DNA from: a virus | Virus genome (UHGV): UHGV-0274736 | DNA length: 13,898 bases | Strand: one strand, 5' to 3' | Shown: piece after piece, positions 2,058 through 10,070 of the stretch | Layout: every line of letters starts with the position of its first letter | Numbering within the stretch: position 1 is the stretch's first letter | Made by a program: the position numbers and the translations under genes | The notes under the pieces: model-generated | Seen by the model: only the letters and a program-made list of their open reading frames with translations | Told to the model about the DNA's origin: nothing | Databases searched by the model: none

Positions 2058-3248
2058 TTAGCCACGGTTAACCTCCTGCGGAGGTTCCGGTAGAGGCATC
2101 CAGTGGGTTACATTGCGGCTCTGTGTTTCGAAAAATTCATCACCATTGCGGACAATATCGAAAAACTCTCCGTCTCGATATTGCGCATAAAGAACGAATG
2201 CGCCATCACATAAAATAATTACGTGCTGACCATCATCTGGCATTAGCTCACTACAGCTTATCCAACCATCCGGAGTTCCCGGAGTTGGTCCATCGAATTC
2301 GGGCATGTCAGGACCTTTTCTGATAGCTTTAGCCAGCTCCAGCGGGTCATCGTAAAGCCAGTCGCCAGTTTGTGGGTGATTTGCTTCTGCAAGCTGCGCA
2401 GCCCATTCAAGACCATCTTTTTGACCTTGGAGATAATCAAGTGGCAACTCTTCATGATTACTTGCAGGTTCGACACACTGAAGCATGGCAGCGTGGCAGG
2501 CATACTCAACGCCCTTAACTTCATCTGCGCAGTAGTTATAGCGATTGCATTCCACTAATTTCCATTTGAGTTTTTCAATTGCCTGCGCGACATCAGCCTG
2601 TATTACAGGAACTGGCGGAACGGCTGTTTGCTCTCGAACGTCATTAGTCGCTATCGGTTCTGCTGCCAACTGACTGGCATATTTGTTAATGGTAACGATA
2701 AGCTCTTGCTCAGCCTCATCCAGACAATCACCGATACCTCGCCTGTCACCGTCAAAATCATCGAAATCGGCACGAATCTTGGCAACCTTCAGGATTGCGG
2801 ACAACACCTCACTAGGAATTACCGGATAGTTGGTTGACGTTTCCGCGATTTCCCGAAAATTATTGGTTGACGAATTCTTGTTTTCCCGAAAGTTTCCGGA
2901 CTGAAGCATGGCGGCGCGGCAGGCGTTCCAGCCATCTGCGTAACAATCTCTGTGTGTCTTGAAATATGTCACCGCCCTTGGTACATCGTTTACGTCTATT
3001 TCATCCGGCACAACCGGCGCAGGTGAGTCAGCATAAACAGGAATAACGTCCGGTTGCTCTTTATTGCTTTCATCCGTTAAAGCCCAGAATAATTTCCCGG
3101 CCGGATGTTTGAAAATATAAGCAACTGGTTCGGCTTCCAGTGATGCCAGCGCAATTCGTGCCAGTTCCATTTGTTCGCCACGGGTAAGCCCGTTATCAAG
3201 CGGATTTTTAATGAATAATTCGATACGTTCTTTGGTAATAGTGGTCAT
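2058..3248 (-). CDS. Prophage protein with C-terminal DUF551-like domain (396 aa)
   Basis: Start ATG with GAGGAT SD; stop overlaps nothing; C-terminal segment WISCSELMPDDGQHVIILCDGAFVLYAQY...THWMPLPEPP resembles the DUF551 signature as I recall it; start codon overlaps the stop of the upstream gene (ATGA). Confidence 0.6.
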   Translation of the reverse strand: MTTITKERIELFIKNPLDNGLTRGEQMELARIALASLEAEPVAYIFKHPAGKLFWALTDESNKEQPDVIPVYADSPAPVVPDEIDVNDVPRAVTYFKTHRDCYADGWNACRAAMLQSGNFRENKNSSTNNFREIAETSTNYPVIPSEVLSAILKVAKIRADFDDFDGDRRGIGDCLDEAEQELIVTINKYASQLAAEPIATNDVREQTAVPPVPVIQADVAQAIEKLKWKLVECNRYNYCADEVKGVEYACHAAMLQCVEPASNHEELPLDYLQGQKDGLEWAAQLAEANHPQTGDWLYDDPLELAKAIRKGPDMPEFDGPTPGTPDGWISCSELMPDDGQHVIILCDGAFVLYAQYRDGEFFDIVRNGDEFFETQSRNVTHWMPLPEPPQEVNRG

Positions 3249-3454
3249 TTGTTAATCCTCAAAACTTTATGCCCGGGCGCAAAAGCACGTGTTTTGTCTT
3301 TACTTATTCGCCACCCGTCTTTACGGGCCTCTTTTGCACAACCAGACCATGACGTACCGATATACTCACCGAAGTCTGGCACTGGATATACACCCTCCGT
3401 ACACTGGCGGCAGTCACAATAGAGATGCATGGTGTAACTTGCAGCGATAGCCAT
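3245..3454 (-). CDS. Small Cys-rich protein (69 aa), possible zinc-binding
   Basis: AAGGAG SD before ATG at 3454; motif C-D-C-x2-C plus a later Cys; translationally coupled to neighbours on both sides. Confidence 0.55.
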   Translation of the reverse strand: MAIAASYTMHLYCDCRQCTEGVYPVPDFGEYIGTSWSGCAKEARKDGWRISKDKTRAFAPGHKVLRINK

Positions 3455-3455
3455 A

Positions 3456-4163
3456 TCACTCTCCTTTGATGCGAATGCCTGCGGCGCGGATTGCAGCGAT
3501 GACTTCAGAAACTTTGTATGCCATTACCGTTTGGTAATCATCGTGAAAATCTGTTCGATGAAGCATGCTGCTACGTTCCGGGAGCGATATTTCCCGAGCA
3601 TCCAGTTCCTTAACGCGTTCCTCCAGTTCGTAGACCCTGCATTGTTCTCTATCATCAATCAGATATAACCCAAGACATTCGCTTTCTACCCAACCGCCAA
3701 AATCATGATCGTAACGCTCACATGAAAACTCACCGTCACCGTCCTTTGTTGGAATGGTGTAACTATCTAATGGGCCACCATATGTCGGCACATTTCCCAA
3801 TGTTGGATGCTCAATCCACATGAAAAATGCACGTCCGGTTATTGGGCAAATATCTGGCCGCCATTGGTTACGAACAGCCTTGGTTTCGGATAATTCTTCA
3901 GCGTGTTGTTTTACTTCCTCAAGCTCAACTCTCAGCTTCCCCACCGTTAGCGCAATATCCTCGTTCTCCTGATCGCGGCTTTTGATGTATTGCAGGTTTC
4001 TTTCCCGTTCATCCAACAATGCCAGCGCGATATCTGGCGAAAAGTGCTTCATAAAATCGTTAAGCGCATTAATTCGCTGATCGAAAGGCATTACAGGTGC
4101 TTCACCAGCAATTTTTGTTTTTTCAGCGATTTCACGAAGCTTTTGATAATCAATCTTGCTCAC
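3456..4163 (-). CDS. Ea22-like protein (235 aa)
   Basis: GTG start with AGGAGG SD; segments LLDERERNLQYIKSRDQENEDIALTVGKLRVELEE and C-terminal AAGIRIKGE resemble recalled conserved N- and C-terminal regions of lambda Ea22, with a divergent middle region. Confidence 0.5.
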   Translation of the reverse strand: MSKIDYQKLREIAEKTKIAGEAPVMPFDQRINALNDFMKHFSPDIALALLDERERNLQYIKSRDQENEDIALTVGKLRVELEEVKQHAEELSETKAVRNQWRPDICPITGRAFFMWIEHPTLGNVPTYGGPLDSYTIPTKDGDGEFSCERYDHDFGGWVESECLGLYLIDDREQCRVYELEERVKELDAREISLPERSSMLHRTDFHDDYQTVMAYKVSEVIAAIRAAGIRIKGE

Positions 4164-4404
4164 TGGTTGCCTCCTGCTTTTCTGCCTTCAACACCATGCG
4201 AGAACCATCATCCAGCTCCCACACGATCTCACCACCTTCAGCCATGACCAGTTGCCACACCAATTGAGCAGCCTCATTGGTAACATCACGACCTAGATCA
4301 TTGCCAACTCGCATACGTCCACCTTCAACATCGCGCATTTTTGCCAGCATGATAGTTTTTGATAGCGGTGAAAAACCAAGCTGTAGTCGTGCGGAATTAC
4401 TCAC
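4150..4404 (-). CDS. Hypothetical protein (84 aa)
   Basis: GTG start with AGGAGG SD 6 nt upstream; 3' end overlaps Ea22-like start; same strand and operon context. Confidence 0.55.
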
Positions 4405-4568
4405 TGCTTGCCTCCTTTACGCCACATCGCATTCAGATATTTGTTGTCATTAACAGAGCCGAAACTATTTCTCTTAAGCAATTCCTCTCTCGATGGCATT
4501 GGCTTTACGCGTTGGCGAATAATCATTTCTGCCGGAAGAATGCCGGGATTGTATGCAAGTCCTCTCAT
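4401..4568 (-). CDS. Hypothetical protein (55 aa from internal Met; track ORF extends to 4601)
   Basis: TAAGGA SD 7 nt before ATG at 4566-4568, directly after the stop of the upstream gene; the longer track ORF start at 4601 lacks an SD and would overlap the upstream gene. Confidence 0.45.
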
Positions 4569-4578
4569 GGTAAATTCC

Positions 4579-4875
4579 TTAGTCATTACTGATAGCGCCA
4601 TAGCGTGAGCGGTAATTACGCAGACGCGGGTCGATATATTCAGGGAATTTGTCTATTGTCGCTTTTCGCAACGGTCTCATTGCTGTTTCGTTTGTTCGGT
4701 CCTTCTCCTGTTTTAGCGCGAGTTGTATATCGCGTCGGTACTTCCGTTCTTCTTTTGTTTCTGGTGGCAGAGCAAGAAACGCGTCGAGATTATTCTTGAT
4801 ATTTTCCAGCACCTCCGATATGGAATTGCCGGAACAGCGGCGCGGGTCGTCCGCACCATATAGAGGCGCTGGCAT
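4579..4875 (-). CDS. Hypothetical protein (98 aa)
   Basis: Complete minus-strand ORF in operon context; weak SD; no recognised motif. Confidence 0.5.
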
Positions 4876-4898
4876 AATGGGAGCCTTATTTTCAGTGA

Positions 4899-5486
4899 TC
4901 AGAAAGGAGGGTAATCGTTCTGGCTGTAACCATAATCATCTGCATGATTATGGCTTACGTTTTTAGAGCGATTGTCTTTATCTTTGAGGCTGGCAACCAT
5001 GTTGGCGATAGTTTCTGGTTGCTTGCCTTCCGCCTTTTCTTTAAGGGTTTGACCTGTTTGTGCAATAAACGGGATGCGTATTTCCATCTGGTAGCTGTCT
5101 GCGCCAGTCTTTTTGTTTGTGGTTAATACTTTCTGGAGCACTAACCCGATTTTCTTTCCATGAAATTCAGGTGCAACAAATTTACTGGCGGAAACCATAT
5201 GTTGCGTTAATTGTCCAATCCCGGCACACCCCATCATGGCGTGAACGACATTTGTGCCAAATTTGTTTTCCGTTCCGTCATTTTTCTGAACACAGACGCT
5301 AAGATATTGGATTTTACGTCCGTCGTCGGATTCGCCAGAAAACTCAATAAATTTGGCTCCTTTTTCTGATTGCTTTAGTTCTGCTTCAGTAATGGTAATG
5401 ATATGAGCGCCAGTTTCGTTAATAAAACCGCCTTGTCCTGCGGTCAGTGCTGCTTCTTCGTTATAAGTAAAAATCACGCTGATCAT
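4899..5486 (-). CDS. SSB-like recombination accessory protein, DUF669-type (195 aa)
   Basis: N-terminal pattern G-x-F/Y...ITEAELKQSEKGAKFIEF typical of DUF669 as I recall it; acidic C-terminal tail ending DDYGYSQNDYPPF resembles the SSB C-terminal DDDIPF tip; ATGA overlap with the upstream ATPase gene. Confidence 0.55.
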   Translation of the reverse strand: MISVIFTYNEEAALTAGQGGFINETGAHIITITEAELKQSEKGAKFIEFSGESDDGRKIQYLSVCVQKNDGTENKFGTNVVHAMMGCAGIGQLTQHMVSASKFVAPEFHGKKIGLVLQKVLTTNKKTGADSYQMEIRIPFIAQTGQTLKEKAEGKQPETIANMVASLKDKDNRSKNVSHNHADDYGYSQNDYPPF

Positions 5487-6163
5487 GCGGCGTTTTCCTT
5501 AATTTGATGAACATTATTGATGCCGTAGTAATCACAAACAGTGGCATCGACGAAAGAGAGATCGTTATCAATCTCATTGGAATCAAACATTCCCATTGGG
5601 GATTTAACAGTGTCTGCACCGTTGTTTTTCGTGATGAAAAAGAACTGGTCATCGCGGGTAAGAGTGCGAAGAACTATAGTAAACATGCCTTCGACAGTGA
5701 TTTTCTCGTCCAGCATTTTGCCGATAGTTTTCATTTTCACGCGCCCCATAGGGGTTTCTTCGGTATGGGCAAGAAAATAGACTCTCAGGTCATCAGGCGC
5801 ATCCTGTGCAGCCTTAATGACCTCCCATGCGTGACGGCCTATCTCAGTGAATTTATCAAACGATTTTTCTTCTGAGCGGCGCATAAACTCATTGCTCATC
5901 ACATACTGGAAGTCATCAACAATAACGATTCTTTTCCCGTATTCGTGAGCACGCTTAATTACGGCAACTATTACGTCCCATTTGTCAGTGGTGACTACGG
6001 TTCCTTTTTTTGCTCTGGCATCCCATGCAAGCCAGTCTTTTGATTTAAATGGTAGCGGCTTGCCTATTGGTTTTATAAGTATTGCTTCCTCGGGATTGAT
6101 ATTTCTCATGCTGGTTGATTTTCCGGTGCCAGACTCACCGAGTATTAATGTCGCAGTTCCCAT
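5483..6163 (-). CDS. Sak4-like RecA-fold ATPase (AAA_24 type, 226 aa)
   Basis: Walker A GESGTGKST near the N-terminus, Walker B RIVIVDDF; size and position next to an SSB-like gene are typical of phage Sak4 recombinases; GAGGTGA SD. Confidence 0.75.
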   Translation of the reverse strand: MGTATLILGESGTGKSTSMRNINPEEAILIKPIGKPLPFKSKDWLAWDARAKKGTVVTTDKWDVIVAVIKRAHEYGKRIVIVDDFQYVMSNEFMRRSEEKSFDKFTEIGRHAWEVIKAAQDAPDDLRVYFLAHTEETPMGRVKMKTIGKMLDEKITVEGMFTIVLRTLTRDDQFFFITKNNGADTVKSPMGMFDSNEIDNDLSFVDATVCDYYGINNVHQIKENAA

Positions 6164-6633: not shown

Positions 6634-7602
6634 TTAGTAGATTATTTTTGTTGCGAATACTTCGCCTTTTACGATGGCTGTTATGATATTTTTAGCAACA
6701 TCTTCTGATGCGCCAACCTTGATAAGGTCAGCAAGTATTTTGTTATTTACTTCTTTCCGGTGAGCTTTATCCTTTGCTCTACGCTCTTCTTCGTCCTTGA
6801 TTCTTTTTTCTTCTGCTATTCTGGCTTGCTCTTTTGCTTCAGCTTCGCGCCGGATTCGTTCAGCCTCCTCCTGTGCTTTTCGGCGTTCTGCTTCAATTGC
6901 CGCCTGCTTTTCTCTTTCAGCTCGTTCTGCTGCCTCTTTTGCTTCGCGCTGTGCTCGTTGCTCGGCTTCAATGCGTTCACGCTCTGCACGTTCCGCTGCG
7001 GCCTTAGCTTCTGCTTCTCGCCTTGCTGCTGCTTCAATTTCGGCTTTTGCCTTTGCTTCGGCTTCAGCTCTGGCTTTCTCTTCAGCTTCTCTTTTTAAGC
7101 GTTCTTCATGCTCTCGCTTTTCCTGCTCCGCTTTGAGTCTTGCCTCTTCTCTTTGGCGGTCAAATTCGCGATCCATCAAAATAGCTATTTCATGGTCAGA
7201 CTCAATTTGCTTTGCGAGAGCTTCAGCTGCTGCCTTAGCTTCTTCTTCGGCTTTAATCCGTGCCTGTTCCTCCTCATAATCAGTAAGAGGCTGGCGCGCC
7301 TTGGCTTTCAGTTCATCAAGGCGATCGCGCACTGTCTTGCGGTTGGCATCAATTAGCTTTGGAATTTCCTTCAGTTCAGCAACAAGGTCTTTGCCAAGAC
7401 CATCGAGATATGTTTTCGTCTGCGCAACTTTATACGCCAGAGAAGCGATCTCCTTTCTGCCCTTTGCCGTTGTGATATCAGGCACAAAGGACATAACTTC
7501 ACGTTCAACCCTTTGAAGGATTTCTTCAATCTGGTCGGCAGACTGAAATACAGTCATTGCATTTGCTTTTTCAATAACAACTAAATCTGTTACTTCACTC
7601 AT
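6634..7602 (-). CDS. Glu/Ala/Lys/Arg-rich coiled-coil protein (322 aa) with globular N- and C-terminal ends
   Basis: GGAGGA SD 5 nt before ATG; about 170 residues of EAKR-type low-complexity repeat (REAEEKARAEAEAKAKAEIEAAARREAEAK...); the plus-strand ORFs in the same interval are antisense artefacts of the repeat. Confidence 0.75.
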   Translation of the reverse strand: MSEVTDLVVIEKANAMTVFQSADQIEEILQRVEREVMSFVPDITTAKGRKEIASLAYKVAQTKTYLDGLGKDLVAELKEIPKLIDANRKTVRDRLDELKAKARQPLTDYEEEQARIKAEEEAKAAAEALAKQIESDHEIAILMDREFDRQREEARLKAEQEKREHEERLKREAEEKARAEAEAKAKAEIEAAARREAEAKAAAERAERERIEAEQRAQREAKEAAERAEREKQAAIEAERRKAQEEAERIRREAEAKEQARIAEEKRIKDEEERRAKDKAHRKEVNNKILADLIKVGASEDVAKNIITAIVKGEVFATKIIY

Positions 7603-9088: not shown

Positions 9089-9670
9089 ATGAACAACTCA
9101 TGGTGGCAGGAACTAATGCATTTTTTCCTGCAAGGAATGACACTTAAACAGTTGATTCATATGCTAATCATCCTGATCATATTGATTATTGTTATGCCGG
9201 TAAGCGTAAAAGAATGGATAAACCTGCATAATCCAGAAATCCTTCCTCATTATTGGATGTATTACATCCTGTTGTTCTGCGTTAGCTATGTGCTTAACGG
9301 TGTTGTTAATTCCGCTTATCACGCTGTGACTGAAAGAATTGAGGTATCCGCTGCTCAGAAGCGCAAATCTAAAGAAGAAAAATATGTGCAAGATTTGTTT
9401 GATTCGTTAACTCTTGGAGAAAGAGCGTATTTGGCATTCGCTGTAGCCGCGAATAACAAGCTAAAGACAGAAAAGGGAAGCCCCGAAGCAATCTCATTGC
9501 TCGAAAAAGGGCTTCTTATTCGGATACCTTCTGCTACTGGATATCCTGAAATCGACCGTTTTGTTATCCCGGAACGCTATAGAAATGAGTGCTACATTAG
9601 GTTTGCTGGGAAGAAAGACAGTCTTATGGATGAACTTATCGCTCAGGATAAGCATGGCAAAAACAAGTAA
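9089..9670 (+). CDS. sieB: Superinfection exclusion protein B
   Basis: MNNSWWQELMHFFLQGMTLKQLIHMLIILIILIIVMPVSVKEWINLHNPEILPHYWMYYILLFC... matches recalled lambda SieB; convergent with N as in lambda. Confidence 0.85.
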   Translation: MNNSWWQELMHFFLQGMTLKQLIHMLIILIILIIVMPVSVKEWINLHNPEILPHYWMYYILLFCVSYVLNGVVNSAYHAVTERIEVSAAQKRKSKEEKYVQDLFDSLTLGERAYLAFAVAANNKLKTEKGSPEAISLLEKGLLIRIPSATGYPEIDRFVIPERYRNECYIRFAGKKDSLMDELIAQDKHGKNK

Positions 9671-9686
9671 TTAGCAAATGATTTTA

Positions 9687-10070
9687 TCATCTCGCCGTCA
9701 GTTGTTTTGATTTCCTGTAGCCTGCCGCGTAAATGGCTACGTTTGGAAGACATACACCAGTTTCTGGTTGCTTATGTCCAAACTCATTCGCGTACACAAT
9801 GGCCGCTCGCTCCAGATTGCGTCTGTATTCTTTCTGTTGCCAGATCACGTCCTGTGCCATGAACTTAATTGGCTTAGCGTCTTCTATGCGCTCAGGCGTT
9901 TCGTGAGCACCTTTAGCCTGAATCTGCGCTCTGCTTAGAGTAGGGCGGTGTAATACTTCTGAACTTATTGCTTCTTCGCGGGCCAGCACGCCGTTAGCTA
10001 ATGCCTTTGCCTTTAAACGCTCACGACGACGAGAACGTGAATTGCCTTTGAACTGAGTTCTGCGTGTCAT
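9687..10070 (-). CDS. N: N-type transcription antiterminator (127 aa) with N-terminal arginine-rich motif
   Basis: AGGAGG SD 6 nt before ATG; N-terminal GNSRSRRRERLKAKA is an arginine-rich RNA-binding motif like lambda/P22 N; sits directly downstream of a boxB-like hairpin and pL-like promoter. Could alternatively be a Nun-type factor. Confidence 0.7.
   Translation of the reverse strand: MTRRTQFKGNSRSRRRERLKAKALANGVLAREEAISSEVLHRPTLSRAQIQAKGAHETPERIEDAKPIKFMAQDVIWQQKEYRRNLERAAIVYANEFGHKQPETGVCLPNVAIYAAGYRKSKQLTAR

Follow-up and report, generated by a model that had tools for sequence, protein, structure and literature searches.

The five small minus-strand genes at positions 3245–4875 of the UHGV virus genome UHGV-0274736 most probably represent the promoter-distal end of the early-left (pL) operon of a mosaic lambdoid prophage, in which abc2 is followed by accessory gene cassettes joined by a short linker sequence. 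The window, namely the whole stretch of DNA analyzed here, is 13,898 nucleotides (nt) long. It carries an int-like gene (484–1554), a xis-like gene (1532–1750) and then leftward-transcribed genes up to a repressor/cro/cII/O region at about 10.4–12.9 kb, and this layout identifies it as the left arm of a lambdoid prophage. The string has an ordinary lambdoid early-left architecture and combines known cassettes into a new mosaic. As such it needs no special explanation, and the linker at its junctions is a modest point of wider interest.

A preliminary description made from the sequence had listed five consecutive minus-strand genes of 98, 55, 84, 235 and 69 amino acids (aa), and their coordinates and strand were confirmed. 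They are abc2 (98 aa, 4579–4875, ATG start), a DUF2737 gene homologous to hkaI of phage HK620 (55 aa, 4401–4568, ATG start), a DUF7446 gene (84 aa, 4150–4404, GTG start), an Ea22-like gene (235 aa, 3456–4163, GTG start) and a phrog_926 gene (69 aa, 3245–3454, ATG start). Overlapping or abutting stop and start codons had been described for the whole string. This was correct for three junctions, with a 4-nt overlap (GTGA) between the 55- and 84-aa genes, a 14-nt overlap between the 84- and 235-aa genes, and a 1-nt gap (TGAtATG) between the 235- and 69-aa genes. It was not correct for the junction between the 98- and 55-aa genes, which has a 10-nt gap and a TAA stop inside the next Shine–Dalgarno (SD) sequence (TAAGGA). 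The 69-aa gene overlaps the following 396-aa gene by 4 nt (ATGA), and the Sak4-like and SSB genes upstream of the string overlap by 4 nt as well. The SD of each gene is located inside the last codons of the gene before. The compact string is probably translationally coupled: ribosomes ending one gene would start the next at the overlapping or abutting codons, and no internal promoters would be needed.

All five open reading frames (ORFs) are genuine genes. Purifying selection was detected on each of them, with ratios of nonsynonymous to synonymous substitution (dN/dS) of 0.07–0.36, and their lengths are kept in relatives. The proportion of synonymous differences (pS) was 0.18–0.34 for the four string genes with many relatives. 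Frame-disrupting polymorphisms, a warning sign in the preliminary description, were sought in the relatives and none was seen. The program-made ORF list gave the second gene 66 aa. The 55-aa start is supported by the DUF2737 match, which covers residues 1–51, by HK620 hkaI, which begins at the same Met, and by relatives with a different upstream gene, in which the 11-codon extension of the 66-aa form is missing. The GTG start position is occupied by ATG in 23 of 84 relatives of the DUF7446 gene and in 12 of 79 relatives of the Ea22-like gene. The junctions are also kept: the 4-nt overlap before DUF7446 in 76/84 relatives, an overlap of 14 or 4 nt before the Ea22-like gene in 69/79, the 1-nt gap before the 69-aa gene in 84/89, and a 4-nt overlap between the 69-aa gene and the DUF551 gene in 59/81. 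It could be argued that some of the small ORFs are untranslated annotation artefacts, as the string contains ORFs below 100 aa and four of its products have no known function. However, each ORF matches a curated or clustered family (E 1e-18 to 1e-45), the lengths and dN/dS values show constraint, ATG replaces GTG at the same start in relatives, and one protein has a solved homologue. We consider the artefact explanation extremely improbable.

The preliminary description had found no recognisable function apart from the Ea22-like protein and the Cys-rich 69-aa protein. This claim fails for the 98-aa protein, which matches Abc2 over its full length. Its residues 1–98 align with profile positions 1–97 of 97 in PF11043 (Abc2) at 136 bits (cutoff 25, E 5e-40), and it matches phrog_656 ("abc2 anti-RecBCD") with E 1.4e-45. 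The match to the P22 Abc2 structure (PDB 8b1t_A, E 1.4e-36; the other P22 Abc2 entry, beside 8B1T, is 8B1U) is also full-length, and P68 is conserved (RP at 67–68). A PDB sequence search with the five proteins matched Abc2 alone. The 98-aa protein is 66% identical to HK620 hkaJ and has diverged to a similar degree from P22 Abc2, and the dN/dS of the gene is 0.36. It is a predicted Abc2, the P22-type anti-RecBCD protein 2. P22 Abc2 and the 98-aa protein share the N-terminal 18 residues, P68 and the C-terminal IDPRLRxYRSRY motif, whereas the central part has diverged. Abc2 of P22 acts on host RecBCD by binding to RecC and turns the enzyme to the benefit of the phage recombinase; the P68 of Abc2 has been proposed to enter the PpiB active site (PMC9836394). 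By analogy, the 98-aa protein would be expected to bind RecC and redirect RecBCD.

The gene abc2 is located immediately downstream of a Sak4-like annealase gene (5483–6163, minus strand; phrog_2872, 99% identical to HK620 hkaL) and a phage SSB gene (4899–5486, minus strand; phrog_743, 97% identical to HK620 hkaK), as in HK620, and closes the recombination (Rec) module. Judging from these matches, Sak4, SSB and Abc2 form a putative HK620-type Rec module, which abc2 would complete. Rec modules of this type have been described (PMC5928155, PMC12315714). In both P22 and the window, abc2 adjoins a phage annealase module, but the partner recombinase is Erf in P22 and Sak4 with SSB in the window, and the window has no abc1. 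For annotation, we suggest that the 98-aa gene be labelled abc2 and grouped with the Sak4/SSB module, and that the other genes be given their family names and not be treated as orphans. The ssb/abc2 boundary (4875–4899) separates Sak4 and SSB proteins 99% and 97% identical to those of HK620 (L280) from an adjoining Abc2 with 66% identity, and the abc2 allele of the window is 96–97% identical at the DNA level to that of phage JEP4. Within the recombination module, this boundary resembles a mosaic joint.

The closest known system is hkaJ–hkaE of HK620, followed by the P22 abc2/ea region and then the lambda/Shiga toxin (Stx) phage exo-xis region. The annotated HK620 map (GenBank AF335538) reads pL-nutL-N...kil-hkaM-hkaL(sak4)-hkaK(ssb)-hkaJ(abc2)-hkaI-hkaH-hkaG(eaD/Ea22-like)-hkaF-hkaE...int. 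HK620 and the window are alike in gene order, orientation and overlapping junctions, and hkaG is 42% identical to the Ea22-like protein. HK620 has the same linker, AGGAGGCAGCCAGTGA, at the hkaH/hkaG junction and the same junction, AAAGGAGAGTGA, after hkaG. They differ in that the window carries DUF7446 for hkaH and the 69-aa phrog_926 gene for hkaF, and in the C-terminal part of the Ea22-like protein. The HK620 integrase is annotated as cps-53-like, whereas int and xis of the window look lambda-type by reading of their translations alone. The preliminary description had noted that the gene content is unlike the ea8.5 region of lambda, and the present comparison agrees, the content being of the HK620/P22 type instead.

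By analogy with HK620, whose early-left operon carries nutL and the N antiterminator, positions 3245–4875 would be the promoter-distal part of a pL operon transcribed with N antitermination. We infer pL transcription from the HK620 annotation together with the absence of a promoter excess and of a convincing coding-strand terminator in 2058–6163. In this segment, 8 promoter-like sites were found against 15.4 expected, and a terminator scan found no strong minus-strand terminator. A moron-like independent transcription unit was considered and is unsupported, since there is neither a promoter excess nor a convincing internal coding-strand terminator. A SieB-like membrane protein gene (9089–9670, plus strand) on the opposite strand adjoins an arginine-rich N-like antiterminator gene (9687–10070, minus strand), both by translation reading alone. 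In HK620, hkaP, annotated as a putative superinfection-exclusion protein, is likewise on the opposite strand near N and hkaQ, and this resemblance supports the operon assignment. Within such an operon, the four genes behind abc2 would be non-essential accessory cassettes of the "ea/hka" or exo-xis type.

The region is widespread in parts. Of 5,426 complete E. coli genomes, 2,514 contain portions of it, as do 382 phage records, and none of these genomes or records spans 80% or more of it at a single place. Over the whole window, phage records reach at most 41% coverage at a single place. The order abc2 > DUF2737 > DUF7446 > Ea22-like > 69-aa > DUF551 protein > xis/int is kept in relatives, and single string genes are present, absent or replaced among them.

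The two GTG starts had been described as having identical AGGAGG spacing. This was confirmed, and the description understates the similarity, as both GTG codons are inside a 16-nt repeat. Copy 1, AGGAGGCAAGCAGTGA (4401–4416, minus strand), comprises the SD, a 6-nt spacer and the DUF7446 GTG overlapping the TGA stop of DUF2737. Copy 2, AGGAGGCAACCAGTGA (4160–4175, minus strand), comprises the SD, the spacer and the GTG of the Ea22-like gene, and is read through by DUF7446 in another frame (..QEATSEQD at the C-terminus). The consensus is AGGAGGCAA(G/C)CAGTGA, a direct repeat of 16–20 nt. The repeat extends to 20 nt at 90% identity (copy 1: 4397–4416) with a spacing of 241 nt, and 200 shuffles of the window yielded no match at all.

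In IMG/VR the exact 16-mer is abundant, being present in at least 120 stretches. Among 128 motif-selected IMG/VR instances, the linker is flanked by at least 17 unrelated families downstream and about 15 upstream, in 35 combinations, and the Ea22 family dominates downstream (86 of the 128). The 182 instances from homologue-selected loci showed 59 combinations. Upstream genes read the linker in different frames, ending in ..KGGNQ with a 4-nt overlap, in ..QEATSEQD with 14 nt, in ..KEATSE with 8 nt, and in others with 20–29 nt. The linker is therefore conserved at the nucleotide level. An explanation of this conservation by RNA structure is unsupported, since folding of the six junctions gave no common structure and the two linker copies fold differently; an Rfam scan of the window found no RNA family.

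A second junction type, AAAGGAGAGTGAtATG (3452–3467, minus strand), combines an SD with the Ea22-like stop codon and, after 1 nt, the ATG of the 69-aa gene. Although unrelated, the ORFs upstream of this junction all end in ..IKGE, ..TKGE or ..GKGG. This junction type, AAAGGAGAGTGAnATG, behaves much like the linker, and in HK620 it fronts the unrelated hkaF.

The linker is a recurrent mosaic joint. In the window, homology to JEP4 ends at 4420 and returns exactly with the first base of linker copy 2 (4175), and homology to HK620 also resumes at 4175. The sole difference between JEP4 and the core of the window is an Eae gene in place of DUF7446, a position taken by hkaH in HK620, so the DUF7446 gene is apparently an exchangeable cassette between two linker copies. 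Of the context pairs similar on one side of the linker, 81% were unrelated on the other, against 4% at a control point 150 nt into the downstream gene. From these comparative data we infer that recombination may take place at the linker. The linker would most likely double as a ribosome-binding site and as a short homology patch for the insertion, deletion and swap of cassettes, with phage annealases as plausible catalysts.

The linker could instead be only an optimal signal for translation initiation and coupling, with AGGAGGCAA(C/G)CAGTGA selected independently at each junction and without a role in recombination. The perfect SD, the 6-nt spacer and the start overlapping the stop fit this explanation, and the mostly unstructured junction RNAs are consistent with accessible ribosome-binding sites. 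However, the spacer CAACCA and the post-start bases GTGAGY are conserved together with the SD across unrelated flanking genes and different upstream frames. Homologues of the same genes also carry quite different junctions in some phages, for example CAGAGAGGTTCGAAGTG or GAAGGAGCCGCACTATG, so expression does not depend on the exact 16-mer. The coincidence of homology breakpoints with the linker is a further point against a pure initiation signal, and we regard this explanation as unlikely.

Taken further, the linker AGGAGGCAACCAGTGA(GY) and AAAGGAGAGTGAnATG may be crossover sites of a gene-cassette system embedded in the operon. Single accessory genes would be inserted, deleted or swapped by short-homology annealing, plausibly catalyzed by adjacent annealases of the Sak4, Erf or Red-beta type. 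Translation would stay coupled, and otherwise unrelated proteins would acquire the same C-terminal tail (..KGGNQ or ..KGE). We offer this as a tentative proposal, possible rather than probable. The modular theory of phage evolution with "linker" or "boundary" sequences reportedly goes back to Susskind and Botstein (1978), Botstein (1980) and Clark et al. (2001). The linkers of that theory and the linker described here are alike in being short and conserved, in lying between exchangeable genes at mosaic joints, and in serving also as an expression signal. Short conserved boundary sequences have been credited to Clark et al. 2001 (for HK620) and to Susskind and Botstein 1978 (PMC3029335, PMC3233612). 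The linker motif string was not found in the searchable full-text literature, which does not include Clark et al. 2001. Phage annealases are reported to tolerate homology that is short or diverged (PMC2327257, PMC3945230). A functional analogue of the linker is the PeSL cassette of T4-type phages (PMC2839356); a PeSL consists of a promoter and a stem-loop, whereas the linker is a 16–20 nt translation-initiation/stop junction inside an operon and not an intergenic segment. If the proposal is true, the decades-old "linker" model of modular phage evolution would gain a defined and abundant test substrate. The linker also offers concrete material for comparing two models of the origin of phage mosaic joints, homologous recombination at conserved linkers and random illegitimate recombination followed by selection.

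Several points weigh against the reading of the string as a coupled pL operon of linker-joined cassettes. Translational coupling is deduced from junction geometry alone, namely an SD inside the preceding gene and a stop/start overlap. Unusual RNA structure was seen at only one of six junctions (z = −2.1), so there is no general evidence for occluded SDs that need upstream translation. The left joint with JEP4 (4420) misses linker copy 1 by 4 nt on its upstream side, and the JEP4 junction sequence differs there. In the breakpoint test, the controls at −250, −150 and +250 nt showed 41–66% switching; they fall on neighbouring gene boundaries, which accounts for these values and leaves +150 nt as the only clean control. 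Phage mosaic joints are found at gene boundaries anyway, because selection removes joints inside genes. The information content inside the linker motif is inflated, as the instances were selected by their similarity to the motif. RecC binding by the 98-aa protein is an assumption, the identity to the studied P22/HK620 protein being only 66%. Four of the five proteins are without known function, and the structure model of the DUF7446 protein had a mean predicted local distance difference test score (pLDDT) of 46.7 (shallow alignment, at least 80% identity) and was kept out of the fold search.

The five genes could also be one functional unit, such as a complex or an anti-defence system around the Ea22-like protein, with coupling serving stoichiometric co-expression. 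The very tight junctions would agree with this, including the 1-nt junction before the 69-aa gene that is kept in 84/89 relatives, and most loci with both abc2 and DUF2737 have them side by side. However, the genes assort independently in dozens of architectures. In 41 of 121 cases the gene before DUF2737 is not abc2, and an Ea22 N-terminal-like ORF precedes the 69-aa gene in only 32 of 98. Homologues of the 69-aa gene also occur in a different gene context in virulent Ackermannviridae phages of about 157 kb. PADLOC gave no matches of note, and the NCBIfam and PADLOC scans together showed nothing meaningful. A single functional unit is very unlikely.

The 235-aa protein had been called Ea22-like, and this was upheld by PF13935 above its curated cutoff (65.9 bits against 27, residues 2–94). 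The Ead/Ea22 N-terminal domain comprises residues 1–97 (3873–4163, minus strand), and a fused C-terminal module, beginning NQWRPDICPITG, comprises residues 98–235 (3456–3872, minus strand). In tblastn comparisons, the protein was 36% identical over residues 1–171 to annotated Ea22 in records of lambda-derived and related phages, and 89% identical over residues 1–93 to Salmonella phage SE10, and P22 EaD matched residues 46–97. The gene is located between the recombination genes and xis/int, and its dN/dS was 0.11, from a single full-length relative. Viral contig L083 carries, at about position 1144, a 154-aa ORF directly behind the same linker, near-identical to residues ~96–190 of the 235-aa protein (55 of 60 positions in the second block of the alignment). 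As the C-terminal module is a stand-alone gene in this contig, the 235-aa protein is an in-frame fusion. Its N-terminal, middle and C-terminal segments match different phage sets, and these segments appear to recombine independently among phages.

The C-terminal module had no Pfam match and no PDB chain at E ≤ 1, although the PDB should include the solved C-terminal domain (CTD) of lambda Ea22. This does not exclude membership of the Ead/Ea22 family, as CTDs are reported to differ among Ea22 proteins. Reports on Ea22 describe a pro-lysogenic protein in which the N-terminal/coiled-coil part is conserved and the CTD varies (PMC7093339, PMC10834534). By analogy, the 235-aa protein would be expected to bias the phage towards lysogeny. 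A BrxC match (E 0.007) to this protein was dismissed, as it falls on the coiled-coil part.

The 55-, 84- and 69-aa proteins belong to catalogued families without assignable function. The 55-aa protein matches PF10930 (DUF2737) at 105.3 bits (cutoff 25) and phrog_1117, and is 93% identical to HK620 hkaI. Its length is 54–56 aa in 75 of 77 relatives, with a dN/dS of 0.32. The 84-aa protein matches PF24233 (DUF7446) over residues 7–79 at 67.9 bits (cutoff 24.1) and phrog_1578, and its relatives are labelled "DUF7446 family protein" in RefSeq. This family has 381 homologue clusters in Enterobacterales, and the dN/dS of the gene is 0.12. A phmmer match of residues 8–43 to LHCI light-harvesting chains of PDB 9vfj (E 1e-4 to 0.7) was set aside as probably spurious, as no single stretch passes.

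The 69-aa protein matches phrog_926 over positions 1–69 of 69 (E 9.2e-37). It has 69 aa in 87 of 89 relatives and the strongest conservation of the string (dN/dS 0.07). The preliminary description had implied that this Cys-rich protein is recognisable. The searches did not bear this out, as there was no Pfam, NCBIfam or PDB sequence match and no significant fold match. The family signature is YCDCxxC...GWxISxD...(C)xAPGH. Within the close family, C13, C15, C18 and H62 do not vary, and C13 is also constant among 46 diverse members. Clustering at 50% identity divides the wider family into 407 clusters. The conserved Cys/His signature suggests metal binding. The AlphaFold2 (AF2) model is an alpha/beta structure of moderate confidence (pLDDT 78.8). 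Its best match among PDB folds was not significant (E 0.23), and the BFVD search returned uncharacterised phage proteins only, plus a weak "CHC2 zinc finger" match (E 0.08).

Homologues of the 69-aa protein include those at L281 2498–2716 and L282 3001–3216. Homologues with 40–46% identity are found in the ~157-kb virulent Kuttervirus/Ackermannviridae phages, after a dCMP deaminase gene and a "membrane-flanked domain" gene, so the family is not confined to temperate phages. A closer homologue (88%) is located in the exo-xis region of the Stx phage ST2-8624, downstream of ea22 as in the window. Being conserved and present in both temperate and virulent phages, the 69-aa protein is a reasonable candidate for functional study.

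The lambda/Stx exo-xis region (ea22, ea8.5, orf60a, orf61, orf63, orf73) resembles the string in its position between the recombination genes and xis/int, in having an Ea22-family member, and in belonging to the early pL operon, pL transcription of the window being assigned by analogy. Pfam/PHROG scans of the genes examined gave no match to ea8.5, orf60a, orf61, orf63 or orf73/TraR, for which no individual searches were made.

The gene following the string (2058–3248, minus strand) encodes a 396-aa DUF551-containing mosaic protein, with PF04448 at residues 328–391 and an N-terminal 49 aa that is 84% identical to HK620 hkaE. A 25-nt direct repeat (92% identical; 2477–2501 and 2900–2924) inside this gene encodes ..AC(R/H)AAMLQ.. 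twice on the coding strand. It may be an intragenic linker at a domain boundary. ORFs ending in ..AAMLQGK.. are also located upstream of the 69-aa gene in other phages.

Terminator-like features were observed between the DUF551 gene and xis. A strong GC-rich hairpin at 1781–1800, with a T-run on both strands, resembles a bidirectional terminator and is located just past the stop of a 55-aa ORF (1790–1957), upstream of xis. Two more minus-strand terminator-like sites are present at 2028–2007 and 1996–1977. On the other side of the string, a minus-strand gene at 6634–7602 encodes a 322-aa protein with a long, repetitive, coiled-coil-like segment rich in E, K, A and R. Its DNA contains several families of imperfect direct repeats, and its relatives are labelled TolA, "cell envelope biogenesis protein" or Smchd1-like.

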